Program-made: the position numbers and the translations under genes
Part shown: positions 8,875-45,434 of the stretch, piece after piece
Numbering within the stretch: position 1 is the first letter of the stretch
Layout: every line of letters starts with the position of its first letter
The notes under the pieces: generated by a model
The model's database searches: none
What the model saw: only the letters and a program-made list of their open reading frames with translations
What the model was told of the DNA's origin: nothing
NCBI GenBank assembly: GCA_024640845.1
Contig: JAHEEE010000145.1
Location: 456-64,455, forward strand
Length of the DNA: 64,000 bases
Direction: 5' to 3'
Origin: Myxococcales bacterium
Lineage (GTDB): Bacteria > Myxococcota_A > Polyangia > Polyangiales > Houyiibacteriaceae

Positions 8875-11800
8875 CTAGGGGATCACGCAGGTGCCCTGGT
8901 TGACCGGGGGCCCTGAATTGGGCGGGCAGTCTGCGTCGACCGCGCAAGTCGCCCCAGCGTTATCTCCGAACTCACAGATTCCGGGTGCGTCCTCGTCGGC
9001 GCCGATGTCAAAGTCGCCTCCCAGCGGCCGGACATCGTTGTCGTAGTCCATGCTCGGCGCATTGGTCGCTGAGCCGGCGTCGATCGCCGATGAAGGCGCG
9101 GCGATGTGGTAGTTCCAGGGCGCGCTTCCGTCCGGCCAGGCCTGCGTCAGCGGACCGTAGCGCACGTCGATCCAGGCCGCGCCGCCCTCGTCCAGCGCGG
9201 GAAGCGCCAGCATCGGGCCAGGGGGGGTCTCAAGGGTGCGACCACCATTGCAGTAGGCGTTCACCAGCCCAGGGTCACCCGACGTATTGCTGGGGTCGTA
9301 GCCGCTTGCGTCGGTCAGCACCGAGGAGACCGGGTCGAGCATAAAGCCTCCGCCGAGGACCCCGAGATCCTGGTAGTTCGCGGGGGAGGGACACTCCCCG
9401 ACGATGCTCTGGCTGAGGACTGGCATGAGCCCGGCGCCCGCGGGCAGGGTGGCATCGTAGTGGAAGGAGCGGTTCTCCCACACGATGTTGTTCGACAGGA
9501 TCGGGTTCGAGAAGTCCCGGTAGTTGCCGGTGTTGTTTTGAACCGGGATGGCGGCGTTGAGCGCTGTGCTGTGGGGCTCCGAGGAGATGCCCGCCGGCTG
9601 GTTCGCGGAGACGTTTGGGTCCCCAGTCGTGAACGTGGCGGAGACCGTCGCCGTGCTGTCGTTGTGAGCGATCGTGTTGTTGACGATGAAGCTGCGCGCA
9701 GTGTCCTGCGTGGACACCCCGCCGCCCGACCAGCCCGCGACGTTGTTGACGATCATGTTGTTGTTGAGCGTCACGGCGTACCACATGCCAGGTCTGGCCC
9801 TCCCGTTATTGGGGTTGTTCGAGTTGGGGATGTCGCGGCCGTTGACGAACTGGGTGCGGACCCCGCCGCCGTGTCCCGCTCCGGCGTGGTTGCCCTGGAT
9901 GAGGTTGGCGTCCACGAGGACACTGCCCGAACCGCGGGTGAGGCCGTCGACCGCTGGCGGCTCTCCCGCAATGAACAACCCGCCCCCGGACCGCGTCGTC
10001 GCTTGAGCGAACGACTGGTTGAGGACGATCCGGTTGTCCTCGATCACGCCGTTGTTGCTGAGGCCCAGGTGCCCGATGCCGCCCCCATCGCCCGTCGTGA
10101 AGTTCCCGCAGACGAAGTTGTGGCTCACGACGTAGAAGTCGCTGCCGGTGCAGAGCGAAAGACCGCCGCCGGCCCCGCCGAGGCCACCGTTCTGGATGAT
10201 CGCGTTGTCGTGGATCTTCACGTGTGGGTTGAAGGCGAAGGGGCCCTCTCCGGTCAGCTCGAGGAACGGCCGGCCGACACGGATGCCGCCGTGGTACGAG
10301 CCGGCGTTGCCGAACACGCGGTTGTTGGCGATCTCGAGGCCGTGCGCGTACCCGTTGACGAAGATGCCGCCTCCGATGTCGCCACCTGTGATCGAGAAGC
10401 CGTCGATCCGAGACTCGAAGCTCCGGAAGGCGCTGGCCGGCGGCGGGCCCTCGCCGGAGTCGAACACGCCGAGCACCGTGATGGCGGCACCCTCCTCGGT
10501 CTCGACGCCGGCGGCCCCATCGGGCTGGGTGGGCAGGGCGTCCACTTCATCGGTGCAGCCCGCTCCGATCCCGAAAACGCAGTCCATTTTTGCCCGCCAC
10601 GCCGCCATCGTTTCCGCAGGGCGCTTTGCGGCATTGAGGAAGGTCGAACCGGCGCCCGCGCCCTGCAGGCGGACGGGCTTCCACATGATGACGAGCTCGT
10701 CGTACGCGCCCGGCTCCACGAGGATGAGCGCGCCCCGCGGCGCATTGTCGATGGCGTCTTGGATCGAGCCACCGGCCGCCACGCGGATCGGAATCTCATT
10801 GGACACGGTGACCGTCGCGGAGTGGACCGTGGAATTTCCATTGTCGCGCGTCACGACCAGCTCGCCGCTCATCTCCGTTGCCGGCGCCGTTGCCTCGATC
10901 GTGTCCGCATCCCAGCTGGTGATGGCAAGCGGCACGCCACCCACGGTGACGCTGCTGCCCGGTCCCTGAGCTCCGAACCCGAAGTCGCGCTGGATCGTTT
11001 TTTGCGCCGCGGCCCCGCTCGCGAGTGGTCCCTCGTAGGCCGGGTTCGGCACCTCGACCGAGCTGCCGAGGGAGTGGATCGTGAGGGTTCCGCCCGGGGC
11101 GACGAGAGGCCCCGCGCCCGTGCCGTCTACCTGGCGAACCGACGGCGTACCCGCAGGGAGCGCGCAATCCGGCGGGTTGTATCCGGAAGCGAAGGCCGAC
11201 ACTGGGAGCACCGGCGTATCGAGATACGTCGTCGTCCCCGGCATGTATTGGAACGTGTAGCAGAAGTTGCTGTACGCGGGGTTGTACTGGGGGTCGACGA
11301 TCGACTGACCGGGGTTGGCCGGGTCGGGGATCGGGCCCGGGTCGTTCATGCACGTGGTGAGCATCGCGGGTGAGTAGCCGCTCGGCGAGGGCATGTTCGC
11401 CGTGAACGTGGACGGCACGAGCCCGTTGATGCGCCCCCACTGGTCGGAGTAGATCCGCGAGATTTCCGCGCCCCGGTAGTCGCGGATCGAAACCGGCACG
11501 AAGGGGGGCGCCCACTTCTCACCGAACTGCGGCGAGAAGATGCTGAACTCCTGCGCCAGGTCGTCGAGAACCATGCCCGCGAAGTGGCCGGCGATCGGCG
11601 CTCCGGTGAAGAGGAAAAAGTCGGCGGCGGCTTGTCCCTGGTCGGAGAGGATGACCTCTTTGCGGTCGCAGAGCGGCCTCAAGTCGCCGGCGAACGGCGC
11701 CTCGATCATCTCGTCGGGGAAGAGGCTCAGGTACGGAGGCACCTCACGCATCTCGCCGACGCACCGCGGCTGGGCGAGCCCGGGCTCCGGGCCCATCGCC

Positions 11801-14800
11801 GCCAGTACGGTCGCTAGGTTGGGCATGATCATGACCATCGCGCCGCCGGGCATCATCATCGCCACCGGCGCCATGCCGAAAGCGTCCCCGAAGCCGACGT
11901 TGTTGTCTTCTTCCTTCAGAAGATCGTAGCCGGGCGGGGGCACCACCTCGACGACGTACTTGCCGGGCGGGATATCCATGAACGCGTAGCCGCCGTCAAA
12001 GACCGCTGGCCGAGCCTGGTTGAAGTTGCGGAGCCCGTCGTAGCATTTGTCTACGGGTCCACCCGTGAGGATCGCATCGCTCGGGTCGGCGCCGGGGCAG
12101 CCCGTCGGCAGGCTGTCGTCCCAGCTGTCGGTCGTGGTCTCCTCCACCAGGGCGAGGGCGGTCGTCAACGCGCCATTCGCATCGAAGTGCGCCTGGATCT
12201 GGGTCGCGGTCAGCGCAGATTCATAGATCGCCACTTCATCGATGGTGCCGTCAAAGATGTGGCCCCTCGCACCGACGGGGTCCGAGTCGGCGCCGATCGT
12301 GATCGGCAAAGCGTTGACGTTCGTCGTGGCCGTTCCGAGCGCAACGCGATCCACCTCGACACCGTCGACGTAGAGGATCGCGTCGGTGCCATCGAACACC
12401 CCAACGACGTGGAAGGTGGTCCCGGCGGGCGGCGTGGTCGGGGCTTCCGCGATCACCCAAGCCGTATCCGTGCTGTTCCGGACTTGGAAACGCAGCTTGC
12501 CCTGGTTGAGCCACAGCAGCCACGCTCCGGTCACACCGATCTCGTCCTTCACCACGATCCGATGCCCCTCCGTATCGATCGTGTTGGCGTTGACCCACGC
12601 CTCCACCGAGAACGCGCTATCCGACAGCGCGGTCACACCGGTGTCGACGAAGTCGGTGGTGGTCGTTCCGTCGAATCCTGCTGCCGTATTGGGGCTATTG
12701 CCGAGCAGTCCCGTCGCCGGCAGCGTCACCGTCGACCCATAGGTGCCATCACTGCCCCCGGTCTGATCGAGCGCTGGTCCCACGGTCGTTGATTCGCCCA
12801 GACGGTAGTAGTGGTTCGGCCCGTCGGCGAGAACGGTACTCGCGTAGGCGCTCGTCTCCACCTCCCGGTAGAGGCGGACCTTGACGCCCGGTATGCCCGG
12901 CTCCCAGGGCTCGCCGACGGCGAGCCGCGGGTCATTCTCGGCGCGGGTCGATGGATAGTAGACGATCCCCGAGATGCCGCCGTTTTCACCCGGTGCGTAG
13001 GGGGCCTTGCCCCATTCGAAGATGCTCGTCTGGCCGAGGAAGCCCTGGAAGCCCTCGGTGAGGACGGGGCCGAGCTCGGTGCGCGTCGTCGACATGCCGT
13101 CCGCCTGCACCTGCGGGTTGAGGACGTTGCCTGTCGCGCTCACGTCGCCCCCGCCGTCGACGGTCACGGTCAGGCCCGTCGCCTTGAAGCGCGTGAAATC
13201 GACCTCCAGCACCTGCCAGTGAAAGAAGGGGAATGTCTGGTCGAAGGGCACGAAGCCTTCGGTGTCGGTCGGGAAGGACTGATTGACCGTGCCGTCGCGC
13301 CAACGCAGGTTCACCGCCTGCTCGGCAACGGGCCCCTCGTCGGGATCACGAATGCCGTTCTGGTTCTCGTCCAGGAACACGTTGTGCTCGGTGCGCGCAA
13401 ACCATTGGAAGACGGGCACGTTGCCGACTGCTCCCCCACCGGGCAGCTCGACTCCGCGGTAGGCGATGATCTGATCGAGGTAGCTGTCCCAGACCACGAG
13501 CTGATAGCTGCCGTCGGGTACGTTGCTGATCGTGAAGTTGCCATCGGCGTCTGCCTGGACGGCGGCGATGTTGGGACCGAGGCCACCGGCGGAGTTGAGG
13601 CCGACCCAGGCTCGGGTGTGAGCCAGGGCGTCGTACGATTGGCTGTCCCAGAGCGTTTGGTCGGGCGGGCGGGACATGTGAAGGTTGGTGACGCGTCCCG
13701 TGACGGTGTTGGCGCCGCCTGGATTGACGAGGTTGTCGGGGTTGACGAAGCCGACGAACACGTGCCAGCCGGCGGGCCCGAACTCTTGGAAGAAGGGGGG
13801 CTCGCCCGCCTTCACCCAGGCGTCGATGACCTTGGTTCCTTCGATGGTCGAGGTCTGCGTCCAGGTTTCCGGGCCCGGGGGCGCGACGGCGATCACGCCG
13901 TACTTACCGGGGTAGAGGTTCTTGATGAGCGCCTGGCCCACCAGACCTGCCTCCTGGTTCGCCACGGTATTGGGGCAGGTGAGGATGACCCCCATGGGTG
14001 GCGGCGCATCCCCAAAGCAGTCGAGCGAGTTCTGCAGCGGATTGCCGAAGGCATCCTGCATCATCGTCCCGCCCGAGATGCCATAGCGTCCGCCGGCATC
14101 CTCGAGGGTGATCTGGAAGCCGCCGAGGCCGAGGCCCGCCTCGCCGCCGTCGACGGCGCCGTTGGTCGGGCTGCTGTCCTCGAAGACGTAGACACTGATC
14201 TGGGCCGAAGGCAACGGCTGCTTGTTTACGGTGACCGTCACCGCCGTGGCGGCGGGCGGAATCCGGGCGCCGCCTATGGTGTGGCCCGTACCGGTCGCCG
14301 CGTCGGCGGGCAGGACCGAGACGTAGTAGTGCTTCGTCGGGTCGAGCGCGAGCTGGGCGAACTCTGTGGCGCCGCTGCCCTGCGCCACGATCGGCATGTA
14401 GCTTTTGTGGAAGTTCGTTGCCAGCGTGTCCGTCGGGGGAGGCACGACGCTTGGGTCCGGCTGCCACATCGCGTCCTCTTCGACCACCCAGCGGTAGTCG
14501 GTGACGGCGACGTCGAGGGGGTCCTTCACAGTCAGCGCGATGTTGGCGACCGGGTTGATGTTTAGCGTCACCGTCGCGGGATTACTCAGCCCGCTGCCGT
14601 CGCTGGCGCGATAGGAGAAGGTCGCGGCGGTGCCGCCCGTGTACTCGAACGAGCCGTCGGCATGCAGCGTGAGTCCCGCGGGGGCGGTTCCCTCGATCAC
14701 CGCCCTGAGCGTATCGCCGTCCGGGTCCATGTCGTTGCCGAGGACGCCGGGGGCCGCGACTATGATGTCTGGCCCAATCCCGTTGACATAGGGTCCATCG

Positions 14801-16803
14801 TCGGCCGCTACTGGGAGGTCATTCTCGAAGGAGACGTTGAGGGCGACTTCGACGAGCGTTCCGTCGCCGGCCCTGTAGGTAAAACCATCGCTGCCCGAGA
14901 AGTTTTCGTACGGCGTGTAGGTGAATGAGCCGTCGCCGTTCAGTACGAGCATGCCGTTCGACGGTCCGCTCACCAAGGTTGCACCCGAAATCCCGCCGGG
15001 GGCGGCGCCGATCAGGGCGGTGTCTTCGATGGCGTCATAAGATGTGAGCACAGGATCCGGGGGCTGCGTCGGAGGCGGAGAACCGGTGCCTACTTTCAGG
15101 TACGCCAGCATCCCGCCGTCCGCCTGGTTGTCGCTGCTGAGATCGAGCATCCGGTCGAAGAGCGGGTACGTCGCATCGACGGCGGGCACGGCGACGAGGA
15201 CGTCGAGGGTCTTGCCCGCGGGCAGGAGCGACGATGCCTGGCGCCGCAGGAGTCCCGGATACGGATTGCCGTCTTCCGCGACCGGTCGCATGTCGAGGCC
15301 GACGATGGCCGGTGCGTGAGAGCGCAGCCCCGCGTTGAGGAAGCGCAAGAGGAGGTCTTTGCCCGGCATGCCCGCAGGTATCGCCGGGGGCGGCGACGCC
15401 GTGTCGTACGACTCAGCGTTGATCAGGAAGTAGGTCGGATTGTAGTCGACCGTGCAGGGATAGCCGACGTCGCCGACCGCGTATTCGGCCAGGTTGACGC
15501 ACGCATGGGTCAGCGGCAACGCCATCCCCGCTGCCTCGGCGACCCGCATGTTCTGCCACGGGTCGATCTCGCTGAAGAGCGCCACGGGCTCGGCGTTGTT
15601 CGCATCGAAGTGCGCCTGGATCTGTGTTGCGGTCAGCGCAGATTCATAGATCGCCACTTCATCGATGGTGCCGTCAAAGATGTGGCCTTTCGCACCGACG
15701 GTGTCCGAGTCGGCGCCGATCGTGATCGGCAAAGCGTTGGTGTTCGTCGTGGCCGTTCCGAGCGCAACGCGATCCACCTCGACACCGTCGACGTAGAGGA
15801 TCGCGTCGGTGCCATCGAACACCCCAGCGACGTGGAAGGTGGTCCCAGCGGGCGGCGTGGTCGGGGCTTCCGCGATCACCCAAGCCGTATTCGTGCTGTT
15901 CCGGACCTGGAAGCGAAGCTTGTCCTGGTTGAACCACAGGATCCACGCCCCGGTCACACCGATCTCGTCTTTGGCCACGATCCGATGTTGTCCATCCGTT
16001 GCGGCGGCGTTGACCCAGGCTTCCGCGGAGAACGCGCTAGCCGACGTGGACGTCACGCCGGTATCGACGAAGTCGGTGGCGGTCGTTCCGTCGAATCGAG
16101 CAGCGCTGTCGGTGCCGTAGCCCAGCAAGCCCTTCTTCACCGTCGACCCGTAGGTGCCGTTGGTGGCCCCCGACCCCAGATCGACGGCTGGATCCGCGTT
16201 TGTTGATTCTCCAAGACGGTAATAGTGGATCGGCCCGTCGGCGAGAACCGTACTGGCGTAACTTGGGGTGCTGGGATGCACGATCAAGGCGCCATAAAGG
16301 CCCATCGGCACCTGGATCGACGATTGAGTCCCGCTCTGGTAGAGGTAGGTGCCGGGGCGTAAGGGGCTCCAGGTGTAGTCGGCCGTGAGATCAGGCGCCG
16401 TCTCATGGGTGAACGACTGGACGCGCCGCCTCCCCTGACCGTCCGTGCTCCACTCCGGGTCACCACCGCCGGCCTGACCCGGGATCACGATGGAGACCGG
16501 CGTATCCAGCGTGTTCTTCAGATGAATCGTCAGCGTGTCGGTGTCCGAGAGATGGATCTGGGGCCCGGGCGCGTCGGTCTCGGACGGGAGATCACAGCTG
16601 GTGAAGGTCGCATCCGTGCATAGCGCGAAGCCCCACATGGGGACCGTGCCGCCCTCCCCGGACAGGACCTTGTCGAAGCCCTGCGCCTGAAGGTAGACGT
16701 CGTTGGCGGCGGCGACGGCGGGTGAGACGCTCGCGGCGAGGAGGAGGCCAGCGCATGCAAGCACGGCTGTCCTAAAAATGGCCTTCAGTAAGGTCGATCG
16801 CAT
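8875..16803 (-). CDS. Giant (2,642 aa) secreted multidomain protein. Domains: ligand-less MCO-like cupredoxin pair, 2x LamG, cadherin/VCBS-like, SdrD-B/CarboxypepD-like, IPT/TIG, right-handed beta-helix, Cys-rich tail.
   Basis: Start moved to the ATG at 16803 (MRSTLLKAIFRTAVLACAGLLLAASVSPAVAAA signal peptide, GGAGGAGAAG upstream, 17 nt after the upstream stop). Domain calls come from sequence style. Cupredoxin: PGPQIHL...LYGALIVH. LamG: FDGT..FV.....FS.EAWV...LYVDG. Cadherin-like: DGSFTYTP..F.G.DGFTY, GNDMDPDGD. TIG: SVTVGGVPL. Beta-helix: GG.FV.G....I.NN runs. Confidence 0.9.
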   Translation of the reverse strand: MRSTLLKAIFRTAVLACAGLLLAASVSPAVAAANDVYLQAQGFDKVLSGEGGTVPMWGFALCTDATFTSCDLPSETDAPGPQIHLSDTDTLTIHLKNTLDTPVSIVIPGQAGGGDPEWSTDGQGRRRVQSFTHETAPDLTADYTWSPLRPGTYLYQSGTQSSIQVPMGLYGALIVHPSTPSYASTVLADGPIHYYRLGESTNADPAVDLGSGATNGTYGSTVKKGLLGYGTDSAARFDGTTATDFVDTGVTSTSASAFSAEAWVNAAATDGQHRIVAKDEIGVTGAWILWFNQDKLRFQVRNSTNTAWVIAEAPTTPPAGTTFHVAGVFDGTDAILYVDGVEVDRVALGTATTNTNALPITIGADSDTVGAKGHIFDGTIDEVAIYESALTATQIQAHFDANNAEPVALFSEIDPWQNMRVAEAAGMALPLTHACVNLAEYAVGDVGYPCTVDYNPTYFLINAESYDTASPPPAIPAGMPGKDLLLRFLNAGLRSHAPAIVGLDMRPVAEDGNPYPGLLRRQASSLLPAGKTLDVLVAVPAVDATYPLFDRMLDLSSDNQADGGMLAYLKVGTGSPPPTQPPDPVLTSYDAIEDTALIGAAPGGISGATLVSGPSNGMLVLNGDGSFTYTPYENFSGSDGFTYRAGDGTLVEVALNVSFENDLPVAADDGPYVNGIGPDIIVAAPGVLGNDMDPDGDTLRAVIEGTAPAGLTLHADGSFEYTGGTAATFSYRASDGSGLSNPATVTLNINPVANIALTVKDPLDVAVTDYRWVVEEDAMWQPDPSVVPPPTDTLATNFHKSYMPIVAQGSGATEFAQLALDPTKHYYVSVLPADAATGTGHTIGGARIPPAATAVTVTVNKQPLPSAQISVYVFEDSSPTNGAVDGGEAGLGLGGFQITLEDAGGRYGISGGTMMQDAFGNPLQNSLDCFGDAPPPMGVILTCPNTVANQEAGLVGQALIKNLYPGKYGVIAVAPPGPETWTQTSTIEGTKVIDAWVKAGEPPFFQEFGPAGWHVFVGFVNPDNLVNPGGANTVTGRVTNLHMSRPPDQTLWDSQSYDALAHTRAWVGLNSAGGLGPNIAAVQADADGNFTISNVPDGSYQLVVWDSYLDQIIAYRGVELPGGGAVGNVPVFQWFARTEHNVFLDENQNGIRDPDEGPVAEQAVNLRWRDGTVNQSFPTDTEGFVPFDQTFPFFHWQVLEVDFTRFKATGLTVTVDGGGDVSATGNVLNPQVQADGMSTTRTELGPVLTEGFQGFLGQTSIFEWGKAPYAPGENGGISGIVYYPSTRAENDPRLAVGEPWEPGIPGVKVRLYREVETSAYASTVLADGPNHYYRLGESTTVGPALDQTGGSDGTYGSTVTLPATGLLGNSPNTAAGFDGTTTTDFVDTGVTALSDSAFSVEAWVNANTIDTEGHRIVVKDEIGVTGAWLLWLNQGKLRFQVRNSTDTAWVIAEAPTTPPAGTTFHVVGVFDGTDAILYVDGVEVDRVALGTATTNVNALPITIGADSDPVGARGHIFDGTIDEVAIYESALTATQIQAHFDANGALTTALALVEETTTDSWDDSLPTGCPGADPSDAILTGGPVDKCYDGLRNFNQARPAVFDGGYAFMDIPPGKYVVEVVPPPGYDLLKEEDNNVGFGDAFGMAPVAMMMPGGAMVMIMPNLATVLAAMGPEPGLAQPRCVGEMREVPPYLSLFPDEMIEAPFAGDLRPLCDRKEVILSDQGQAAADFFLFTGAPIAGHFAGMVLDDLAQEFSIFSPQFGEKWAPPFVPVSIRDYRGAEISRIYSDQWGRINGLVPSTFTANMPSPSGYSPAMLTTCMNDPGPIPDPANPGQSIVDPQYNPAYSNFCYTFQYMPGTTTYLDTPVLPVSAFASGYNPPDCALPAGTPSVRQVDGTGAGPLVAPGGTLTIHSLGSSVEVPNPAYEGPLASGAAAQKTIQRDFGFGAQGPGSSVTVGGVPLAITSWDADTIEATAPATEMSGELVVTRDNGNSTVHSATVTVSNEIPIRVAAGGSIQDAIDNAPRGALILVEPGAYDELVIMWKPVRLQGAGAGSTFLNAAKRPAETMAAWRAKMDCVFGIGAGCTDEVDALPTQPDGAAGVETEEGAAITVLGVFDSGEGPPPASAFRSFESRIDGFSITGGDIGGGIFVNGYAHGLEIANNRVFGNAGSYHGGIRVGRPFLELTGEGPFAFNPHVKIHDNAIIQNGGLGGAGGGLSLCTGSDFYVVSHNFVCGNFTTGDGGGIGHLGLSNNGVIEDNRIVLNQSFAQATTRSGGGLFIAGEPPAVDGLTRGSGSVLVDANLIQGNHAGAGHGGGVRTQFVNGRDIPNSNNPNNGRARPGMWYAVTLNNNMIVNNVAGWSGGGVSTQDTARSFIVNNTIAHNDSTATVSATFTTGDPNVSANQPAGISSEPHSTALNAAIPVQNNTGNYRDFSNPILSNNIVWENRSFHYDATLPAGAGLMPVLSQSIVGECPSPANYQDLGVLGGGFMLDPVSSVLTDASGYDPSNTSGDPGLVNAYCNGGRTLETPPGPMLALPALDEGGAAWIDVRYGPLTQAWPDGSAPWNYHIAAPSSAIDAGSATNAPSMDYDNDVRPLGGDFDIGADEDAPGICEFGDNAGATCAVDADCPPNSGPPVNQGTCVIP
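12176..12846 (-). repeat. LamG-domain DNA repeat, copy 2 (intragenic)
   Basis: Aligns with 15599-16260. Includes identical runs of 54 nt (12211-12264 = 15634-15687) and about 85 nt. Confidence 0.9.
15599..16260 (-). repeat. LamG-domain DNA repeat, copy 1 (intragenic)
   Basis: Partner of 12176-12846. Inserted between the two cupredoxin-like domains. Confidence 0.9.
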
Positions 16804-16820: not shown

Positions 16821-18176
16821 TCACTCGACAATCTCGATCTGGGGGGCTTCGATGATCAGCATGGTCATCATCCCGCCGGGGAAAACGTCGTTGTTCACCA
16901 TCTCGCGCTCGGTGTGCGAGTGCCACATGTACGCAAAGCCTGCGTTTGGATTGAGACCGCCCTCGCCGGGGGGAAGGCCGCCGGCCGCTCCGAGATAGGG
17001 GCTGCCGCCGTAGAAGCCGCCGAAGGTCAGGACGCTCTGACCGGGCAGGGTCACGGGGATCGCCCGGTTGTGGTCGCCGCACCACTCGCGGTAGTTATCA
17101 TCGGTCGCGACACTGTGATATCCGTCCGCGTCGGGGGTGCACGCGCTGCCGTCGCCCGGAGTGTGACCGTACATGTCCCAGCCGAGGTCTTTGCCGGTCC
17201 ACTCGAAGATCGCGTCGACCGTTCCGCCCGGCGCCGACGGAATGGTGAAGAGCAGCGGGCCAGCGAGCTGATTGGCGTCGGTCGCGCTAACGAGCAGGCG
17301 GCCATCACGGGCGAGGACGCGCGCGTGGTTCCCGTGGTGGTGGAAGGGATGCATATGGTGACCCGCGCCCACCACTCGCATCAGCAGCCGCTCGCCAGGG
17401 TGCATGCGCGGCATGCAGTTGTAGGGCTGGCTCGGCAGCAGATCGCGGCCGGCCGCGGACATCGTGTCCGGCGCCGCGCGACCGTTGAGGAGCCAGTACT
17501 CCGGAACGTACGGCTCGGTGATGACGTCGATCGGTCCGGGTCCCGAGGCCTGTAGCTCCGCCGCCCGGTGGATGTCGATGTCCACCTCGCTCAGGAGGAA
17601 CAGGTACTCGCGGTCGAAGCAGGTGCCCGAGTGGCCGTAGGCGGAGGCGGTGCACCCGGCGGCGGGCCCCGCCGGCTCGACGATGAGCGCCCCGTAAAGG
17701 CCCATCTCGACCTGCAGATCCGGTCGCGTGCCGCTGTGATACTGGTAGGTTCCCGGTTCGCCGGCCGTGAAGGTGTAGGTGACGGACCCGCCGAGCGGGG
17801 CTTCCTGGGTCAGGAGGCCCGGCACGCCGTCCGTCGATGTCACTTCGTGACCAGGGAACAGGATCGACACGTTGCCCGCGGCTGCGGGAAGCGCGTTGTG
17901 GAGAGTGACCGTGACTGTCGCACCTTCCGTCACGATCAACGTCGGCCCGGGTAGCTGCATCGGGTCGGCGCCGTCGCTGTAGCCCCACGAGTAGATGGAC
18001 CCGCCGTCCGCGATGGAGATGTAGCCCGCGCTCGCCGTGAGCGAGAACGTTGGGCCGGCCACGCCGTCGATCCCGGCACGTGCGGCTTCAGGAGCCATCA
18101 GCAACACCAACGTGGCGGCGAATGAGAACAACCGGACCACCCGGAAATTTCGCTTCTTTGTCTCGAACCTAGTCAT
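16821..18176 (-). CDS. Two-domain multicopper-oxidase-like protein lacking the type-1 Cu site
   Basis: 451 aa with a signal peptide. Domain 1 motifs are degenerate (ILFPGHEV, YQYHSGT). Domain 2 has a canonical HPFHHHG (HxxHxH), but its last motif reads WHSHTEREM...GGMM where HCHxxxH is expected (Cys to Ser, His to Glu). Confidence 0.85.
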   Translation of the reverse strand: MTRFETKKRNFRVVRLFSFAATLVLLMAPEAARAGIDGVAGPTFSLTASAGYISIADGGSIYSWGYSDGADPMQLPGPTLIVTEGATVTVTLHNALPAAAGNVSILFPGHEVTSTDGVPGLLTQEAPLGGSVTYTFTAGEPGTYQYHSGTRPDLQVEMGLYGALIVEPAGPAAGCTASAYGHSGTCFDREYLFLLSEVDIDIHRAAELQASGPGPIDVITEPYVPEYWLLNGRAAPDTMSAAGRDLLPSQPYNCMPRMHPGERLLMRVVGAGHHMHPFHHHGNHARVLARDGRLLVSATDANQLAGPLLFTIPSAPGGTVDAIFEWTGKDLGWDMYGHTPGDGSACTPDADGYHSVATDDNYREWCGDHNRAIPVTLPGQSVLTFGGFYGGSPYLGAAGGLPPGEGGLNPNAGFAYMWHSHTEREMVNNDVFPGGMMTMLIIEAPQIEIVE

Positions 18177-18186
18177 TGCCGCTCTC

Positions 18187-19449
18187 CTAGTTGATCCGGA
18201 TCTCGGTCATCATTCCGCCGAAGTTTTCGGCGTCGTTTGCCAACTGGTGGAGGTTGGTGGTGTAGAGGAAGTAGGTGCTGCCCGGCGCCAGTCCTGCGGT
18301 GTCGAGGATCACGTCCGCGGACTGACCACCGCCGAGCGTCACCGAGTTGGTTTTGTAATAGAGGTTGTTGCCCCAGTCGTCGCGCAGCAGTCGCGCATCC
18401 AACGCGACCACCTCCATCGGGATCCCGTTCGTGCCCAGTGTGTTGAACTGGGTGACGTTGAGGTTGGAGATGCGGAGCAGAATGCGGTCGCCCGCGTTCG
18501 CCGTGATCAGGCTCGACACCGGTTGCGAGGGTCGGCCATCGGTGGAGAGGACGCCCGCGTTCACGGTGTCCGGGTAGCCACGGCCGTTCAGGAGGAAGTA
18601 GCGGTCCTTCATCCCGGCGAAGGGCAGTGGCTGCACGTTGAAACTGGCGTCGTGGAAGTCGGGGTCGAAGGAGCCGATTTGGATCGGCACTTCGACGTCG
18701 TACCGCGTGGAACCGTCGCCGTCGTTGTAGGCGTACGCGTCGCTCGGAGCGTGACCTACAGGGCAGACACTGCCAGGGACCGCGGGGTCGTCAGCTATGG
18801 TATCGCAGCGGTTCTGCCTCGGCCGCACGTACAGGTTGCCGAGCATCCCCATTTGCATGTGCTCGGTGGCCTCGACGTGGCAGTGGTACATGTACGTACC
18901 GGCGTCCTTGGCGTTGTAGTAGTAGGTGAAACTGGCCCCCATGTTGATCGAAACCGAGGCGTCGGGGACACCGTCGAAGATCGACGCCGCCTGCGGGAAG
19001 CCGTGCCAGTGGATGGTGTGGGGGTCGAACAGATCGGGCCGAAACGCCATCCCGACATTGGTGTTGGTCAGAAAGAGCTCGTCGTCTTCGTCGACCACAA
19101 TCGTCGGAGCCGGACTGTTCGCCGCGAGCATTCCCTGCTCCATGACCCATCCGGGATACTGTTCGGGCGGGACGGGGGCGTCGTCAGGGAGCGCGATCCG
19201 GGCAAAGCTGAAGATGTACTGCTGCTTCTGCGCATCATCGGCCATCGTCACCAGACCGTCGCCTGACGCGACGTGGTCGCACTTGATCCCCGCTTCTCGC
19301 GTCGTGTCGTCGCCGTCGGTGTTCGGGTGCAGGACCGTCTCGGTCGGGCATTGGACGTAGATGTTGCTTTCCTGAGCGCTTGCGGTGGCGGCCACGCACA
19401 GCACGGAGATCACGATGAGCGCCGGCCGGCGCGTGTTTCTCAAGACCAT
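18187..19449 (-). CDS. Two-domain multicopper oxidase with all Cu ligands in domain 1
   Basis: 420 aa. N-terminus ...NTRRPALIVISVLCVAATASA is a possible Tat or Sec signal. HTIHWHG and YHCHVEATEHMQMGM lie in the first cupredoxin domain. The second domain has no His motifs. Confidence 0.9.
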   Translation of the reverse strand: MVLRNTRRPALIVISVLCVAATASAQESNIYVQCPTETVLHPNTDGDDTTREAGIKCDHVASGDGLVTMADDAQKQQYIFSFARIALPDDAPVPPEQYPGWVMEQGMLAANSPAPTIVVDEDDELFLTNTNVGMAFRPDLFDPHTIHWHGFPQAASIFDGVPDASVSINMGASFTYYYNAKDAGTYMYHCHVEATEHMQMGMLGNLYVRPRQNRCDTIADDPAVPGSVCPVGHAPSDAYAYNDGDGSTRYDVEVPIQIGSFDPDFHDASFNVQPLPFAGMKDRYFLLNGRGYPDTVNAGVLSTDGRPSQPVSSLITANAGDRILLRISNLNVTQFNTLGTNGIPMEVVALDARLLRDDWGNNLYYKTNSVTLGGGQSADVILDTAGLAPGSTYFLYTTNLHQLANDAENFGGMMTEIRIN

Positions 19450-19629: not shown

Positions 19630-20130
19630 CTACAAGGCTGCATCATGAAGCGTCGGTGCGATCTCTTCCCACCGGGGCGGACGTCCTGTGGGGTTCTCAT
19701 GCCAATAGCGGTGCACGATCTTCTTACACTCGTATGGTGTGATTCCCGTGCATTTCTTGAAGGCTCGTTCGAAGGTCCTGAGATCTTTGAAGCCGACGGC
19801 TAACGCCAAGTCGACGATACCATGATCGTGGTTGCTCAGCAGGAGCAGCGCGCGATTGATCCGCTCGCGTGAGAGCCAGTCATGGAAAGAGATACCTACT
19901 TTCTCCCGGAACAACCTGCAGAAGTACGTCTTCTCGAGCGCGACGAGCTTGGCCGCGTCAGCCAGACTGAACGGTTCGTCGAAGTGTTCGTCGACGTGCC
20001 GCTTGATCTTCGCCAAACGCGGGCAGAAGACGAACATGTGCTCGTTGATTGGAGAATCCAGAAGTAGCTGCGCTGCAGACAAAACGGACGACCACCATGT
20101 CCTGAGCCATCCTCTTGGGGGTGGGCCCAC
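19630..20130 (-). CDS. Small AraC-family (MarA/SoxS-like, DNA-binding domain only) transcription factor
   Basis: Double HTH signature (...FSLADAAKLVALEKTYFCRLFREKVGISFHDWL...IVDLALAVGFKDLRTFERAFKK..G.TP). No room for a ligand domain. The start is uncertain: GTG at 20130 or ATG at 20037. Confidence 0.75.
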   Translation of the reverse strand: MGPPPRGWLRTWWSSVLSAAQLLLDSPINEHMFVFCPRLAKIKRHVDEHFDEPFSLADAAKLVALEKTYFCRLFREKVGISFHDWLSRERINRALLLLSNHDHGIVDLALAVGFKDLRTFERAFKKCTGITPYECKKIVHRYWHENPTGRPPRWEEIAPTLHDAAL

Positions 20131-20217: not shown

Positions 20218-20377
20218 TATTGTCGACTCGGAGCGATTTTAACTATCTGAATTTCCTTATGACTTCGCGTGTCTTAGGCTTTTTACACGTCTTCGGGGGT
20301 GCGCAGCCCAGCTACCTAAGTTAAGCCTAATGTGCTATTTTCTAAGAGTTCGAGTTTCTCTTATCTGGCGAGTGGCG

Positions 20378-21064
20378 ATGCGACTTATGTGGATCGGGGT
20401 CCTAGGCGCAGTGGTGCTGGCCGCGGCCTGCACGGGCAGCACACAGGACCACGCAAGATTGGAGGTTCGCAGCAGTGATTGCGTCGTGTGTCATGCGGAT
20501 GACGTACAGCACGCGCTCAACCCTCCGCACGAAGGCTTTCCCGACACCTGCGGCAGTTGCCACGGCAACGAGGCTTGGAGCCCGGCGGCGTTCCAGCACA
20601 ACTGGCCTCTCAACGGTGCGCACGCGATGCTCGAATGCGCCGCCTGCCATCTTGGGGACCCACCCGTCTATGCGGGAACGCCTACGTTGTGCGTCGGCTG
20701 CCACCAGGACGACTACGACAGCAGCCCCTTTCCGGGGCACGCCGAGTTTCCAACCACCTGTGAGAACTGCCACACCACGACGGCATGGAGCCCAGCCACG
20801 GGAGGCACCCATCCCGAGAATGCGTTTCCGATCCAAAGTGGGCCGCACTCACGATACCGGGACGACTGCGTCTCGTGTCACAATCCCGAGCTTGGCTCGC
20901 CCGTGGACGGTGAGAATGCTGATTGCGTCGGTTGTCATGATGGACAGCACACACGCGCACAGATGGATCCCAAACACATCGAGGTTGGTGGTTATCCGAG
21001 CGGTGCAGCCCCTCCGAACTTCTGCTTGGATTGCCACGCGGACGGCATCAACCGCGACGACTAA
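20378..21064 (+). CDS. 8-heme c-type cytochrome lipoprotein
   Basis: ATG at 20378 gives MRLMWIGVLGAVVLAAA/C, a lipobox. 8 CXXCH motifs. The C-terminal ~85 aa are homologous to the C-terminus of the 29-heme protein. Confidence 0.85.
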   Translation: MRLMWIGVLGAVVLAAACTGSTQDHARLEVRSSDCVVCHADDVQHALNPPHEGFPDTCGSCHGNEAWSPAAFQHNWPLNGAHAMLECAACHLGDPPVYAGTPTLCVGCHQDDYDSSPFPGHAEFPTTCENCHTTTAWSPATGGTHPENAFPIQSGPHSRYRDDCVSCHNPELGSPVDGENADCVGCHDGQHTRAQMDPKHIEVGGYPSGAAPPNFCLDCHADGINRDD

Positions 21065-22377
21065 GCTTCGCCATACTTGGTGACGATCTCGATGCCGACA
21101 TTCTGAAGCAAGTCGGTCGGAGCCGTACCACCGACTTGGACCACCACAGCGTCGTTGTCGATGGAGATCGGCTCTCGCGACGCGTTCCGAAGCGAGACTC
21201 GATCCTGGAAGATCTCCTCGATCTCGGTTCCCAAAAGCGCCGTCAGCCGGCCGCCCTCGATCTCGGCTTCGATGCGCTTGCGATTCGGTTGACGGCACCT
21301 TGCAAAGGTGTTTTTCCGGTAGCTGATGGTCACCGACGCGCATTTTCCCCCATCGATCAATGCGAACGCGGATTCTACCGCCGCATTGCCACCGCCGACC
21401 ACCAAAACGTGCTGGCCTTGGAATGCCTCCGGCTCGATCACTCGGTAGACCACTTTAGACTGCTCCTCGCCGGGCACGTCGAGCTTGCGCGGAGAGCCAC
21501 GGCGGCCGAGCGCCAACAAAACGTTTGCGGTCTTGAAGACGCCTCCGCTGGATGACACCAGCCAGCTATCATCTGGTCCGCGCTCGATGTGCTGCACGAG
21601 CTCTCCGACCGCGACCTGCAGCCCGGTCTTGTCTCGAATGTCCTCCCAGAGCGTCACCAGTTGCTCTTTGCTCATCTTTCTCTTGGATACGCGGCCGTAC
21701 ATCGGGAAGTCGAGCGCTCCGGTCATCACGACCTTCGCGCGCGGATAGTGCGTGATCGTGCCGCCAAAGGCTTCACGCTCGAGCAGCAGCACACGCAGCC
21801 CCGCCTCCATCAAGCGAAGTGTCGCGCTGGTTCCGGCGGGGCCGGCGCCGACCACGACCGCATCCAGGGACTCGCCTGCGCCCCTGCGATCGCCAGCGAC
21901 GATGTGGTCCGCGGCTTGCCGGCCCTGGGAGACCGCATTGCGAATGAGTCCCATGCCGCCAAGCTCGCCGACGATGTAGATGCCTGGCTGGTTCGTTTGA
22001 AAGTCGGGATCGACTTCGGGCAGCTCGAGACCGCGCTTGGCCGTCCCGAAGACGAGGGAGATGGCCTGGACCGGACAGGCCGATGCACAGGCGCCATGTC
22101 CGATACAACCGAGCGGGTTGGTCAGCACGCCTCTGCCGTTGACCACGGTGAGCACGCTCTTCTCCGGGCAAGCGTAGACGCACGCCCCTGAGCCAATGCA
22201 GCGGAGTGGGTCGATTAGCGGATGAATGCTGGCCGGGACGATGTCGCCCATCGCGCTGAGCGCCTCAAGATCTCGCCGGCCGGTCTCAGTGCGGAGCTGC
22301 TCTCGCTTTTGCAGGAAAAGGCTCAGAATCCACGCAAACGCGACCAAAAAGCCCAGTGCAATCCAGGTGCTGCTCAT
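21061..22377 (-). CDS. Membrane-anchored 2x[4Fe-4S] ferredoxin-domain / FAD-NAD(P) (thioredoxin-reductase-like) oxidoreductase
   Basis: N-terminal TM helix (WIALGFLVAFAWILSLFL). Two cluster motifs: CIGSGACVYACP and CIGHGACASACP. Dinucleotide folds VVVGAGPAG and LVVGGGNAA. Start taken at the ATG at 22377 (the ORF runs to 22407). Its stop overlaps the convergent 8-heme stop. Confidence 0.85.
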   Translation of the reverse strand: MSSTWIALGFLVAFAWILSLFLQKREQLRTETGRRDLEALSAMGDIVPASIHPLIDPLRCIGSGACVYACPEKSVLTVVNGRGVLTNPLGCIGHGACASACPVQAISLVFGTAKRGLELPEVDPDFQTNQPGIYIVGELGGMGLIRNAVSQGRQAADHIVAGDRRGAGESLDAVVVGAGPAGTSATLRLMEAGLRVLLLEREAFGGTITHYPRAKVVMTGALDFPMYGRVSKRKMSKEQLVTLWEDIRDKTGLQVAVGELVQHIERGPDDSWLVSSSGGVFKTANVLLALGRRGSPRKLDVPGEEQSKVVYRVIEPEAFQGQHVLVVGGGNAAVESAFALIDGGKCASVTISYRKNTFARCRQPNRKRIEAEIEGGRLTALLGTEIEEIFQDRVSLRNASREPISIDNDAVVVQVGGTAPTDLLQNVGIEIVTKYGEA

Positions 22378-22444
22378 GAGAAGTTGGCCCTTTTGTGTCA
22401 ATCCCACCCATTTTGGTATGCTGCAAGCGTAACATGCAGGGCGG

Positions 22445-23359
22445 GTGGGGACCCGCTTGCTGTGGGGTAGCGTGGGGACAGAGGCGAAGAGCGGTCGTAA
22501 GCGCCGCGCGGATCGGAGCGCCGTCTTGCTGGTGCTGCTGGGGCTTTGCGTCCTCGGCTACATGCTCTGGGATCTCGGCGAGGACTTCTACCTCTCCGAC
22601 CTTCAGTCGAGGGTCGAGCATGGCGACTACGAAGCACTCCGACCGGGAGGTCTCGTCGGACATGGATACGGCATCGTCGGGACGATCCTGATCCTCGCCA
22701 ATCTGCTCTATCTCGCGCGACGCCGCTTCGCTCGGTGGTCGCTCGGCTCGATGGCGACTTGGCTCAACCTGCACGTCTTCACGGGTCTCGTCGGCTCGCT
22801 CCTGATCCTCTTCCATTCCGCCTTTCAGTTTCGGACACCCATCGCGGTGGTTACCGCGATTAGTCTCGGCGTCGTCGTGGCCACCGGGATCGCAGGCCGG
22901 TATCTCTATGCGCTCACGCCGCGTCCTGACCGCCAGGCGCTCGAACAGGCCCTGGCGTCGTTGGACGAGCTAGCACCCGGATGCAGTGCCCGCGTGTATC
23001 ACGCACTGGCGATTCACAAGGTCACCCAGGTCGACACGCACCGCTGGTTGCTCGCCAAGCTCGCGGCGATCCCCAAGTGGGCGCGCGACGCACGCTCGCG
23101 CGGTTTCATCGTCAGCTACGTCATCGAGGATGCTCCCGTTGCGGACATCCTCCAACGCAAGGAGCGAAGACGCTTTCGGAAGGCAAAGCGGGTGGTCCGC
23201 AAGTACGCAACGCGTGAGGTAGTCGCCACCATGGCCTCGTCGCTGCTTCAGTCCTGGCGCGGGCTTCATAGGTTTCTTGCCTTGATTCTCATTCTGTTGG
23301 TCCCCGTCCACATCGCGGTGGCTTGGATCTACGGCTATCGCTGGATCTTCTCGCAATGA
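22445..23359 (+). CDS. Polytopic membrane protein with two H-x13-H helices (putative di-heme cytochrome b / quinol-interacting anchor)
   Basis: About 5 TM helices. HVFTGLVGSLLILFH and HRFLALILILLVPVH each space two His by 13 residues. GTG start. The stop overlaps the next start (ATGA at 23356-23359). Confidence 0.65.
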   Translation: MGTRLLWGSVGTEAKSGRKRRADRSAVLLVLLGLCVLGYMLWDLGEDFYLSDLQSRVEHGDYEALRPGGLVGHGYGIVGTILILANLLYLARRRFARWSLGSMATWLNLHVFTGLVGSLLILFHSAFQFRTPIAVVTAISLGVVVATGIAGRYLYALTPRPDRQALEQALASLDELAPGCSARVYHALAIHKVTQVDTHRWLLAKLAAIPKWARDARSRGFIVSYVIEDAPVADILQRKERRRFRKAKRVVRKYATREVVATMASSLLQSWRGLHRFLALILILLVPVHIAVAWIYGYRWIFSQ

Positions 23360-45421: not shown

Positions 45422-45434
45422 GGCTGTTCTCCTG

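Follow-up and report, generated by a model that had tools for sequence, protein, structure and literature searches.

The giant protein encoded in the window, that is, the whole stretch of 64,000 nucleotides analysed here, starts with two cupredoxin domains (aa 1–611) in the protomer arrangement of two-domain multicopper oxidases (2dMCOs), without copper ligands. The two 2dMCO paralogues encoded upstream, P3 and P2, carry complementary ligand sets, inferred to be the two parts of one shared site. On balance, and with reservations, we favour a heterotrimer of the three proteins in which the ligand-free module is the closing, tethering subunit. Homology, fold, ligand loss, complementary half-sites, synteny, gene fusions and conservation are shown; assembly, stoichiometry, location and substrate are inferred, and no complex was modelled or measured.

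The giant protein (2,642 aa) is the product of a minus-strand open reading frame at 8875–16803, which starts 18 nt beyond the stop codon of the upstream gene. We refer to its first ~580 residues as PSI (about aa 1–611 were compared). The features are listed below in the direction of transcription.

18187–19449, minus strand: P3, a 2dMCO paralogue (Pfam; alignment to domain 1 of 3g5w and 2zwn)
16821–18176, minus strand: P2, a 2dMCO paralogue (Pfam; alignment to domain 2 of 3g5w)
16717–16803, minus strand: start codon and Sec-type signal peptide of the giant protein, aa 1–29 (ATG with a GAGGAG ribosome-binding site before it; hydrophobic N-terminus ending in AVAAA; helix at aa 5–25 in the model)
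16264–16716, minus strand: pseudo-MCO cupredoxin domain 1, aa 30–180 (Cu-oxidase_3; similarity to P2; pLDDT >90; VSIVIPGQ and YLYQSGT...Q...L at the former ligand sites)
15592–16263, minus strand: LamG (Laminin_G_3) in the inter-domain linker, aa 181–404 (Pfam; nucleotide identity to the second LamG copy)
15064–15591, minus strand: pseudo-MCO cupredoxin domain 2, aa 405–580, cluster ligands replaced (BLASTP to domain 2 of P2 and P3; pLDDT 80–96; superposition on 3g5w and 2zwn)
14524–15036, minus strand: bacterial Ig/cadherin-like domains, aa ~590–760 (Pfam Big_9, Cadherin_5 and Cadherin_4)
8875–14523, minus strand: giant scaffold proper, aa ~760–2642 (Pfam and NCBIfam)
8352–8864, minus strand: o170, a secreted 170-aa protein of unknown family (conserved position in related loci)
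7560–8345, minus strand: o261, 261 aa, with an N-terminal signal or anchor (weak LolA_like match)

PSI has the fold of a two-domain multicopper oxidase protomer but no copper ligands

Residues 77–178 match Pfam Cu-oxidase_3 with 31.6 bits, against a curated cut-off of 21. BLASTP with aa 1–611 as query aligns aa 50–190 with P2 (35% identity, E=4e-15), aa 451–513 with domain 2 of P2 (E=2e-4) and aa 458–571 with domain 2 of P3 (E=1e-3). No Pfam Cu-oxidase model matches PSI domain 2 at E≤1; its assignment as a cupredoxin domain is based on the BLASTP matches to P2 and P3, on precomputed PF00394 matches in many homologues and on its fold. The AlphaFold2 model has pLDDT >90 at aa 30–180 and about 80–96 at aa 405–575. 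All top Foldseek matches of this model in the PDB are MCOs, and Factor VIII, a six-cupredoxin relative, is also found among the matches. Both domains superpose only on two-domain type-C enzymes (TM 0.68 for 3g5w and 0.69–0.72 for 2zwn), the three-domain MCOs reaching a TM of only about 0.25. PSI thus has the type-C protomer arrangement. Since 1,223 database proteins match PSI and 532 species genomes contain a relative, its homology is not due to chance.

Alignment to P3 and P2 shows that all 12 copper-ligand positions are replaced. In domain 1, P3 residues H144, H147 and H149 correspond to V103, V106 and P108 of PSI, the H189-C190-H191 triplet to Q156-S157-G158, H197 to Q164 and M202 to L169. 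The type-1 (T1) ligands His, Cys, His and Met are therefore absent, their places being taken by V103, S157, Q164 and L169. In domain 2, H279 and H281 of P2 correspond to A499 and V501, and the WHSH motif of P2 to F-D-R, so that none of the eight trinuclear-cluster histidines, four per domain, is present. PSI retains His496, conserved in 71 of 84 homologues, which aligns with P2 His276, the first histidine of HxxHxH, a position that we do not count among the trinuclear ligands of domain 2. Hence three claims of the initial annotation held: that the first ~600 aa of the giant protein are a ligand-free copy of the MCO fold, that every His/Cys ligand is replaced, and that a LamG domain is inserted between the two cupredoxin domains. 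The cupredoxin fold expected at aa 30–175 and 405–610 is predicted with confidence at aa 30–180 and 405–575.

The ligand-free state is common to 84 PSI sequences and, in the case of P2 domain 1, to 80. Neither HxH nor HCH occurs at a ligand position in the 40 tabulated PSI homologues. Three HxH motifs are found elsewhere, in homologues P0010, P0029 and P0032, all outside the ligand loops. S157 and L169 are invariant (84/84), and conservation is higher in the former ligand loops than in the remaining core (entropy of 1.19 versus 1.82 bits; 0 of 20,000 permutations). Positions 499 and 501, at the former ligand sites of domain 2, vary among homologues. Some residues are conserved although copper does not require them, among them H496, D550, R551, E412 and D414.

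The loss of every ligand could be taken to mean that PSI is a functionless relic of duplication at the N-terminus of the giant protein. This explanation is practically ruled out, since more than 500 species genomes from many phyla retain PSI, as does every cluster examined, and 27 diverse sequences share 23 invariant positions and about 40 that hardly vary.

The LamG insert and the scaffold

Laminin_G_3 occurs twice in the giant protein (181.8 bits in Pfam). The copy at aa ~181–404 shares 80% amino acid and 86% nucleotide identity with the second one (aa ~1317–1550). LamG occupies the identical insertion site in P0001, P0002 and the Kangiella locus L005, and P0080 and P0100 have another insert of ~190 aa there. 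The LamG insert is restricted to one small clade, whereas the PSI module and its fusion to the giant protein are widespread.

Ig/cadherin-like domains follow the pseudo-MCO in most members of the family, including stand-alone homologues of ~640 aa. The scaffold proper contains SdrD_B/CarboxypepD_reg-like domains, the second LamG (12184–12690), a TIG domain, a choice-of-anchor Q domain and a right-handed beta-helix region (8878–10803), the GGGI-type repeats of which are kept in 15 homologues. PDB profile and sequence searches gave no match for the beta-helix part or the middle of the protein, and no recognised anchor motif was found at the C-terminus. The designation of this scaffold as a cell-surface protein held only in part: the location is inferred from nothing more than the signal peptide and the adhesin-type domains, and the export route is unknown.

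P3 and P2 carry complementary half-sites

P3 domain 1 has a full T1 site (H144, C190, H197 and M202) and four cluster histidines (H147, H149, H189 and H191), and its domain 2 is devoid of ligands. In P2 the situation is reversed, with four cluster histidines in domain 2 (H279, H281, H419 and H421) and a dead domain 1. The best sequence matches of P3 and P2 are 3g5w, the blue copper oxidase of Nitrosomonas europaea, and 2zwn, the metagenomic mgLAC. Both have the layout of P3 and P2 taken together, with T1 and half of the cluster in domain 1 and the other half in domain 2. The T1 and cluster motifs of 3g5w domain 1 match P3 domain 1 residue for residue, and the HxH motifs of its domain 2 align with P2 domain 2.

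The division of ligands between P3 and P2 is invariant across 72–80 homologous loci. H-x2-H-x-H-G and H-C-H-x-E-A-x-E-H-M-Q-M-G-M are present in 72 of 72 P3 homologues; among the homologues of P2, H-x2-H-x-H-G is found in 80/80 and W-H-S-H in 79/79. Neither of the upstream "MCOs" is complete, and their ligand sets complement each other; that they jointly form one site is an inference. It follows from the complementarity, judging from sequence alone, that P3 and P2 are not expected to be active on their own. The description of these neighbours as an active MCO pair therefore failed. The reading frame of P2 differs from that of P3 and the giant protein.

Synteny, distribution and gene fusions

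PSI relatives are found in 532 species genomes, and a scan anchored on P3 gave at least 530. The carriers belong to many phyla; among them are oxidisers of iron and sulfur (Gallionellaceae, Sideroxydans, Thiobacillus, Thiomicrorhabdus), Geobacter, Desulfobulbaceae and Acidobacteriota. The order P3-P2-PSI is retained in all PSI-anchored loci with enough flank and in 68 of the 68 P3-anchored loci that have 3 kb or more of downstream sequence. The window and at least 150 related loci have three MCO-like genes in tandem, of which the last is motif-less and has adhesin/beta-helix-like domains. Ten P3-anchored loci that apparently lacked PSI all carry it, with scores just under an arbitrary threshold.

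A giant beta-helix/adhesin-like protein is present at every locus, either fused or separate. In 50 loci, as in the window, it is fused behind PSI; at least 65 loci encode it as a separate upstream gene, and in at least 20 database proteins it precedes P3 in a fused chain. At the only Giant::P3 junction inspected (L039), P3 has no signal peptide of its own. Nine "split" loci apparently without a giant protein turned out to be frameshifted fused genes or artefacts of overlapping ORFs. A concatenated P3+P2+PSI query and an inspection of all 240 listed homologues gave Giant::P3, PSI::Giant and unrelated fusions, whereas P3::P2, P2::PSI and six-domain chains were absent. This negative is weak, since candidates of the P3 type dominated the query. 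In the window itself, the three proteins are encoded by separate genes, and no single polypeptide carries all six cupredoxin domains.

After the PSI gene, o170 is present in nearly every locus with a long enough contig; it has no Pfam, NCBIfam or PDB match. The o261 gene was seen solely in clusters of the fused type, and the only match of its product in Pfam and NCBIfam, to LolA_like of Pfam, is below the cut-off (E=0.0045). In the window, o261 is adjoined by a gene for a 29-haem cytochrome, and large multihaem cytochromes flank the cluster. They were rejected as a defining feature, ORFs with at least four haem motifs being found near only 15 of 132 classified loci.

A similar cluster described in Sideroxydans

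A three-cupredoxin gene cluster has been described in Sideroxydans lithotrophicus ES-1 (Slit_1816–1818; He et al. 2017, PMC5566968; Keffer et al. 2025, PMC12016527). It consists of three tandem MCO-like genes: two have canonical motifs, and the third, motif-less and far larger, encodes adhesin- and polysaccharide-lyase-like domains. The three are followed by two small hypothetical genes, and the products are predicted to be extracellular (PMC5566968; PMC12016527). This description fits P3-P2-PSI::Giant-o170-o261 of the window, where the small genes o170 and o261 are likewise immediately downstream; the identity of the family rests on the published description and not on a sequence comparison. 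A search with a Sideroxydans homologue returned MAGs only, the ES-1 locus not being among the loci. The ES-1 type is marked by a SCO1/SenC copper chaperone gene and a cytochrome gene in adjacent position. No SCO1/SenC gene was found among the scanned ORFs of the window, where multihaem cytochromes are the flanking genes. Both papers left the function of the cluster open, and the sections that bear on it mention neither half-sites nor a heterotrimer. A cluster of three such genes, the last of them without motifs, was already known; the split-site heterotrimer was not found in the literature searched.

In ES-1 the three-cupredoxin cluster and its small neighbours are induced on magnetite, and the three proteins are unequal in the proteome (percentiles of about 79, 75 and 30), the motif-less member being the most abundant and most induced (PMC12016527). 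These data bear on the possibility that PSI acts only transiently, as an assembly factor or a regulatory decoy. It would use the old trimer interface to bind P3 or P2, for instance to keep a half-site accessible for copper loading or to keep the enzyme inactive until export, and would be absent from the mature enzyme. Dead paralogues often serve as chaperones or regulators, and genes for a copper chaperone (SCO1/SenC) and an S8 protease near the split-type Gallionellaceae locus L003 hint at a maturation pathway. We regard this explanation as unlikely: why a transient factor should be joined covalently to a scaffold of 2,000 residues in 50 loci is not obvious, and in ES-1 the motif-less protein exceeds the other two in abundance and induction.

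A putative heterotrimer with a single active site

Two-domain laccases are homotrimers in which the T2/T3 centre lies between domain 1 and domain 2 of adjacent molecules (PMC6650940). Given a cluster between adjacent subunits, one P3 and one P2 make exactly one cluster, and a three-fold ring is free of orphan half-sites only when its third protomer lacks ligands. Type-C 2dMCOs are obligate homotrimers of a complete protomer with three active sites, whereas here the ligands are divided over P3 and P2, with none in PSI, so that a trimer could have at most one.

We propose that P3, P2 and PSI form an obligate 1:1:1 heterotrimer, with PSI as the dead third protomer. The ring of six cupredoxin domains would have its sole type-1 copper in P3 domain 1 and one trinuclear cluster at the P3/P2 interface, to which P3 domain 1 and P2 domain 2 would contribute four histidines each. 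The interfaces between P2 domain 1 and PSI domain 2, and between PSI domain 1 and P3 domain 2, would be copper-free but conserved. PSI would close the ring, and its Ig/cadherin domains and the beta-helix scaffold would make the oxidase a covalent part of a very large protein, secreted or at the surface; elsewhere the tether would be non-covalent or would run through the Giant::P3 fusion. LamG, inserted in the inter-domain linker, should point outward. Electrons would enter at the T1 site of P3, probably from an extracellular metal or mineral, e.g. Fe(II) or Mn(II), or else from a neighbouring cytochrome, and the shared cluster would reduce O2 to water.

The fusion partner of the giant protein is P3 in some genomes and PSI in others, and this is most easily explained by P3 and PSI being in one particle. 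The initial annotation had suggested that the pseudo-MCO could occupy the third position of a 2dMCO-type trimer, as a tether to the scaffold, and all comparative tests that we ran support this; physical interaction remains an inference. Against the heterotrimer it can be said that shared synteny and co-inheritance are also expected of mere pathway partners, that no fusion between the paralogues was found among the 240 homologues, that PSI positions 499 and 501 are variable and that the abundances in ES-1 are unequal. Inter-protein covariation was ruled unsuitable because the available set of about 130 unique triples is too small and too phylogenetically structured.

Alternatively, PSI may be an autonomous non-catalytic module for binding or adhesion, for example to a mineral, metal ion or polymer, with P3 and P2 alone forming the oxidase, as a heterodimer or another oligomer, and with PSI sharing their pathway and operon but not their ring. 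This explanation is possible. In every case PSI is linked to Ig/cadherin domains of the adhesin type or to the giant protein, its conserved H496, D550, R551, E412 and D414 are not required for copper, and synteny by itself does not prove a complex. However, a P3-P2 pair cannot close the ring used by all solved two-domain relatives without an orphan half-site, PSI keeps the full 2dMCO protomer geometry, its strongest conservation is in the former inter-subunit ligand loops, and the giant protein is joined to P3 in one place and to PSI in another.

Returning to the heterotrimer that we favour, two known systems offer partial parallels. In MCOs of the ceruloplasmin type, a ring is formed by six cupredoxin domains, and one of its interfaces holds the only trinuclear cluster. 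The proposed architecture would be a functional analogue, but ceruloplasmin is one chain with several T1 sites, whereas the proposed complex would have three chains, one T1 site and one copper-free subunit. The Mnx complex of Bacillus, a multimeric MCO, is an extracellular metal oxidase that depends on subunits other than MCOs (cited in PMC12016527). There, MnxG has a complete active site, and MnxE and MnxF are small and unrelated to MCOs.

Implications

A bolder reading is that an obligate, scaffold-tethered heterotrimer with a split single site is a living intermediate on the way from 2dMCOs to six-domain oxidases, used by hundreds of species on solid or extracellular metals; for this reading the arguments on either side weigh much the same. 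In annotation, P3 and P2, although each is named "multicopper oxidase", would be half an enzyme apiece. With the subunit model, "three uncharacterised cupredoxins" become a candidate, open to testing, for an enzyme that oxidises minerals or metals outside the cell in some 530 or more species genomes. If it is correct, duplication of a homotrimer gene followed by complementary loss of ligands would have locked three paralogues into an obligate complex, which would represent an extant form of the long-postulated step between two-domain and six-domain multicopper oxidases.

Gene organization and fold of the pseudo-MCO module

Five genes are arranged head-to-tail on the minus strand of the window:

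18187-19449, minus strand: P3, two-domain multicopper oxidase (2dMCO) paralogue, 420 aa
16821-18176, minus strand: P2, second 2dMCO paralogue, 451 aa
8875-16803, minus strand: giant protein, 2,642 aa, with the pseudo-MCO module (PSI) at its N-terminus
8352-8864, minus strand: o170, small ORF, 170 aa
7560-8345, minus strand: o261, small ORF, 261 aa

The ATG at 16803 was chosen as the start of the giant gene because it has a GAGGAG ribosome-binding site ahead of it, sits 18 nt downstream of where P2 stops and marks the beginning of a typical signal peptide. A GTG at 17085 from the mechanical ORF list, 94 codons upstream and overlapping P2, was rejected. This extension and the long plus-strand antisense ORFs inside the giant gene (9106-11373 and 12811-14565) are attributed to a G+C content of 66% and not regarded as genes.

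The initial annotation placed a copper-ligand-free copy of the MCO fold at 14970-16803, which corresponds to residues 1-611 of the giant protein. Pfam recognizes Cu-oxidase_3 (aa 77-178; 31.6 bits, curated cut-off 21), as well as two Laminin_G_3 domains, bacterial Ig/cadherin domains (aa 610-750), SdrD_B and, weakly, a right-handed beta-helix; a choice-of-anchor Q domain is found near the C-terminus (NCBIfam). In BLASTP searches with aa 1-611, residues 50-190 match P2 with 35% identity (E=4e-15), a second match links aa 451-513 to P2 domain 2 (E=2e-4), and aa 458-571 match P3 domain 2 (E=1e-3). The AlphaFold2 model of PSI, based on 120 homologues, has pLDDT >90 at aa 30-180 and ~80-96 at aa 405-575; model quality is low in the LamG insert, since few homologues have it. 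All top PDB matches of the model in Foldseek are multicopper oxidases. Only two-domain type-C enzymes superpose on both domains, namely, the Nitrosomonas europaea blue copper oxidase (3g5w, TM 0.68) and metagenomic mgLAC (2zwn, TM 0.69-0.72), whereas three-domain MCOs reach TM ~0.25, that is, a single domain only. Thus, PSI consists of two cupredoxin domains, of predicted fold, in the arrangement of a 2dMCO protomer. Absence of such a fold from aa 30-175 and 405-610 would have refuted the initial annotation; it is predicted in both regions.

P3 and P2 carry complementary half-sites

Domain 1 of P3 can be matched position by position to the first domain of 3g5w and 2zwn (HTIHWHG with HTIHWHG, and YHCHVEATEHMQMGM with YHCHVNVNEHVTMRGM), and it therefore has a full type-1 copper (T1) site and four histidines of the trinuclear (T2/T3) cluster; P3 domain 2 has no ligands. 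P2 domain 1 is dead (SILFPGHE, YQYHSGT), and P2 domain 2 contributes the other four histidines, HPFHHHG aligning with HAIHTHG and WHSH with IHDH of 3g5w domain 2. This division is family-wide: T1 and cluster motifs are intact in all 72 P3 homologues, the P2 domain 2 histidines in 79-80 of 80, and none of the 80 sequences has ligands in P2 domain 1. Judged by its ligands, each neighbour is thus half an enzyme. This is the main addition to the initial annotation, whose "active MCO pair" has to be revised to two proteins with complementary halves of one site.

Two-domain laccases are homotrimers with the T2/T3 centre located where domain 1 of one molecule meets domain 2 of its neighbour (PMC6650940). 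Given this interface geometry, one P3 and one P2 would form exactly one complete cluster. For a threefold ring to have no orphan half-site, the third protomer must therefore contribute no cluster ligands, and PSI fits this requirement.

Loss and conservation of the former ligand loops in PSI

When aligned to P3, P2 and 3g5w, PSI has replacements at all four T1 and all eight trinuclear-cluster positions.

Copper-ligand positions of P3 and P2 and the corresponding PSI residues
P3 H144/H147/H149: PSI V103/V106/P108
P3 H189-C190-H191: PSI Q156-S157-G158
P3 H197: PSI Q164
P3 M202: PSI L169
P2 H279/H281: PSI A499/V501
P2 WHSH: PSI F-D-R

One histidine, H496, is kept (71 of 84 homologues) and corresponds to P2 H276, with which the HxxHxH motif begins; we take it not to be a ligand, as the domain lacks a T1 site. 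No copper ligands were found in the 84 PSI sequences, and no HxH or HCH motif occurs at a ligand position in the first 40 relatives. Alignment, fold model and family-wide ligand columns thus confirm the claim of a ligand-free MCO fold. PSI is nearer to P2 than to P3 (phmmer cross-scores of about 50-80 versus 25-35 bits), and both PSI and P2 contain the conserved dead motif S-[IV]-V-[FI]-P-G-Q ... Y-x-Y-[HQ]-S-G-T.

The four ex-ligand loops of PSI are significantly more conserved than the remaining cupredoxin core (mean column entropy 1.19 versus 1.82 bits), a value reached in none of 20,000 permutations. Q164 is found in 83 of 84 homologues, and S157 and L169 do not vary at all; in domain 2, both former ligand positions are variable. 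The possibility that PSI is a functionless relic is, in our assessment, virtually ruled out.

Distribution, synteny and scaffold attachment

A protein-collection search with aa 1-611 yielded 1,223 relatives; typical ones either stand alone at ~340 aa or are ~640 aa long and carry Ig/cadherin domains. When one genome per species was scanned, PSI relatives turned up in 532 genomes; the scan anchored on P3 gave at least 530. In the fetched loci (80 + 79), all ORFs were classified by phmmer. The order P3-P2-PSI-o170 is found in every PSI-anchored locus with sufficient flank, and both P2 and PSI are present in all 68 loci anchored on P3 whose downstream flank extends 3 kb or more. Ten of these, apparently without PSI, do contain it, scoring just below the initial threshold.

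The giant scaffold is a constant partner of the trio and is attached in three ways. In 50 loci, including the window, it is fused behind PSI; isolates of this type include Thiomicrorhabdus chilensis DSM 12352 and Thalassotalea sp. ND16A, and in an acidobacterial variant (L172, 7001-15935) the protein with the pseudo-MCO at its N-terminus has 3,109 aa. In at least 65 loci, e.g. in Geobacter sp. DSM 9736 and Gallionellaceae, the scaffold has a gene of its own (1,650-2,250 aa) directly upstream of P3. Finally, the scaffold is fused ahead of P3 in at least 20 database proteins (P0121-P0140, P0146, P0157, P0180, P0195); at the sole junction inspected (L039, 4873-9519), P3 has lost its own signal peptide. 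Fusion of one scaffold to two trio members at opposite ends is expected if all share one particle. A merely transient role of PSI in assembly or regulation seems highly unlikely. Nine apparent exceptions lacking the scaffold are frameshifted or overlapping ORFs.

Variants of the L172 type, acidobacterial or from Binatia, have a P3 with a ~270-aa N-terminal extension weakly repeating its own N-terminal region and a P2 of 551 aa; the ~640-aa members among proteins P0145-P0240 are grouped with this variant. P3-type half-MCOs also follow a PAP2 module (PF01569/PF22778) in ~800-aa proteins (P0133, P0142, P0144, P0147, P0148, P0150, P0155, P0168), and one such protein, P0141, has the alkaline-phosphatase domain PF00245 and lacks HCH and HxH motifs altogether. 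It seems that this half-site domain has been put to use in other contexts as well.

The LamG insert

The giant protein contains two LamG copies:

15592-16263, minus strand: LamG insert, giant aa ~181-404, in the linker between the cupredoxin domains
12184-12690, minus strand: second LamG, giant aa ~1317-1550

The copies are 80% identical in amino acids and 86% in nucleotides over 674 nt, and the insertion site is common to relatives with only 43-57% overall identity, which suggests recent intragenic copying, re-copying or gene conversion. The insert is restricted to a small clade (the window, a Kangiella MAG (L005), P0001, P0002 and P0027). In two other PSI homologues, P0080 and P0100, the same linker holds another insert, of ~190 aa, which did not match the window LamG; hence, the linker tolerates insertions and seems to be a hotspot of domain insertion.

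Small downstream genes and genomic neighbourhood

In almost all loci with a long enough contig, the next gene after the pseudo-MCO is o170. Its product is secreted and has a ~115-aa conserved domain (RWGVE...GYMLEFRYRVLD...FANPG...IGDF) with no relative in Pfam, NCBIfam or PDB and without the Cys/His/Met-rich motif typical of copper chaperones. Possible roles are those of a fourth subunit or of an assembly factor. In the loci examined, o261 (N-terminal signal or anchor; LolA-like match below the threshold) was seen only in clusters with the giant fused to the pseudo-MCO.

The following genes surround the cluster:

5255-7465, minus strand: haem-rich c-type cytochrome, 29 CXXCH motifs
19630-20130: AraC regulator
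20330-21064, plus strand: haem-rich c-type cytochrome, 8 CXXCH motifs
21061-22407: Fe-S/FAD oxidoreductase
22445-23359: cytochrome-b-like ORF
23323-24996, plus strand: haem-rich c-type cytochrome, 20 CXXCH motifs
24708-25910, plus strand: haem-rich c-type cytochrome, 10 CXXCH motifs

These surroundings may represent an extracellular electron-transfer neighbourhood. Multihaem genes are near the cluster in just 15 of 132 related loci, so cytochromes are not a defining part of the system. Far from the MCO cluster lie two adjacent Rieske/KshA-like oxygenase genes (44378-46409, minus strand), beside a GMC oxidoreductase (42163-43749) and other metabolic genes, apparently unrelated to it.

Proposed heterotrimer

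We propose that the oxidase is a 1:1:1 P3-P2-PSI heterotrimer with a single T1 copper, where electrons would enter at P3, and a single trinuclear cluster formed where P3 domain 1 meets P2 domain 2. PSI would close the ring via two copper-free yet conserved interfaces and couple it to an adhesin/beta-helix scaffold, which is predicted to be secreted or surface-exposed on the basis of its signal peptide and Ig/cadherin, SdrD_B, TIG and choice-of-anchor Q domains. We lean towards this model, if only slightly, and consider it unlikely that PSI is a binding module independent of its neighbours; assembly, stoichiometry, copper content, location and substrate are all inferred. The initial suggestion that the pseudo-MCO occupies the third position of a trimer, tethering it to the scaffold, is accordingly supported by strong but indirect evidence, physical assembly being an inference only.

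Sideroxydans lithotrophicus ES-1 has three tandem extracellular MCO genes for which no functional clue was available (He et al. 2017, PMC5566968). Slit_1812-1818 were later reported to respond to magnetite by induction; canonical MCO motifs are present in Slit_1817 and Slit_1818, and the larger Slit_1816 lacks them and has adhesin- and polysaccharide-lyase-like domains (Keffer et al. 2025, PMC12016527). Similar clusters occur elsewhere, their role being unknown according to the same authors. Judging from the published description, without sequence comparison, the ES-1 cluster fits the fused architecture of the window, down to the pair of small genes that follow. Induction on magnetite in ES-1, together with the very large multihaem cytochromes on either side of the cluster in the window, suggests extracellular metal or mineral oxidation or cytochrome coupling, the substrate being inferred. 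More speculatively, invariant glutamates by the T1 histidine (H-C-H-x-E-A-x-E-H) might point to a metal-cation substrate.

The motif-less third paralogue has thus already been published. We found nothing relevant on heteromeric or heterotrimeric two-domain MCOs in the literature searched, nor the split active site or the ring-closing role, which hence appear to be new. The cluster in the window is an ordinary member of a widespread family, so far described only superficially; what is new is not the locus but its mechanistic reading, as a variant on a known enzyme type.
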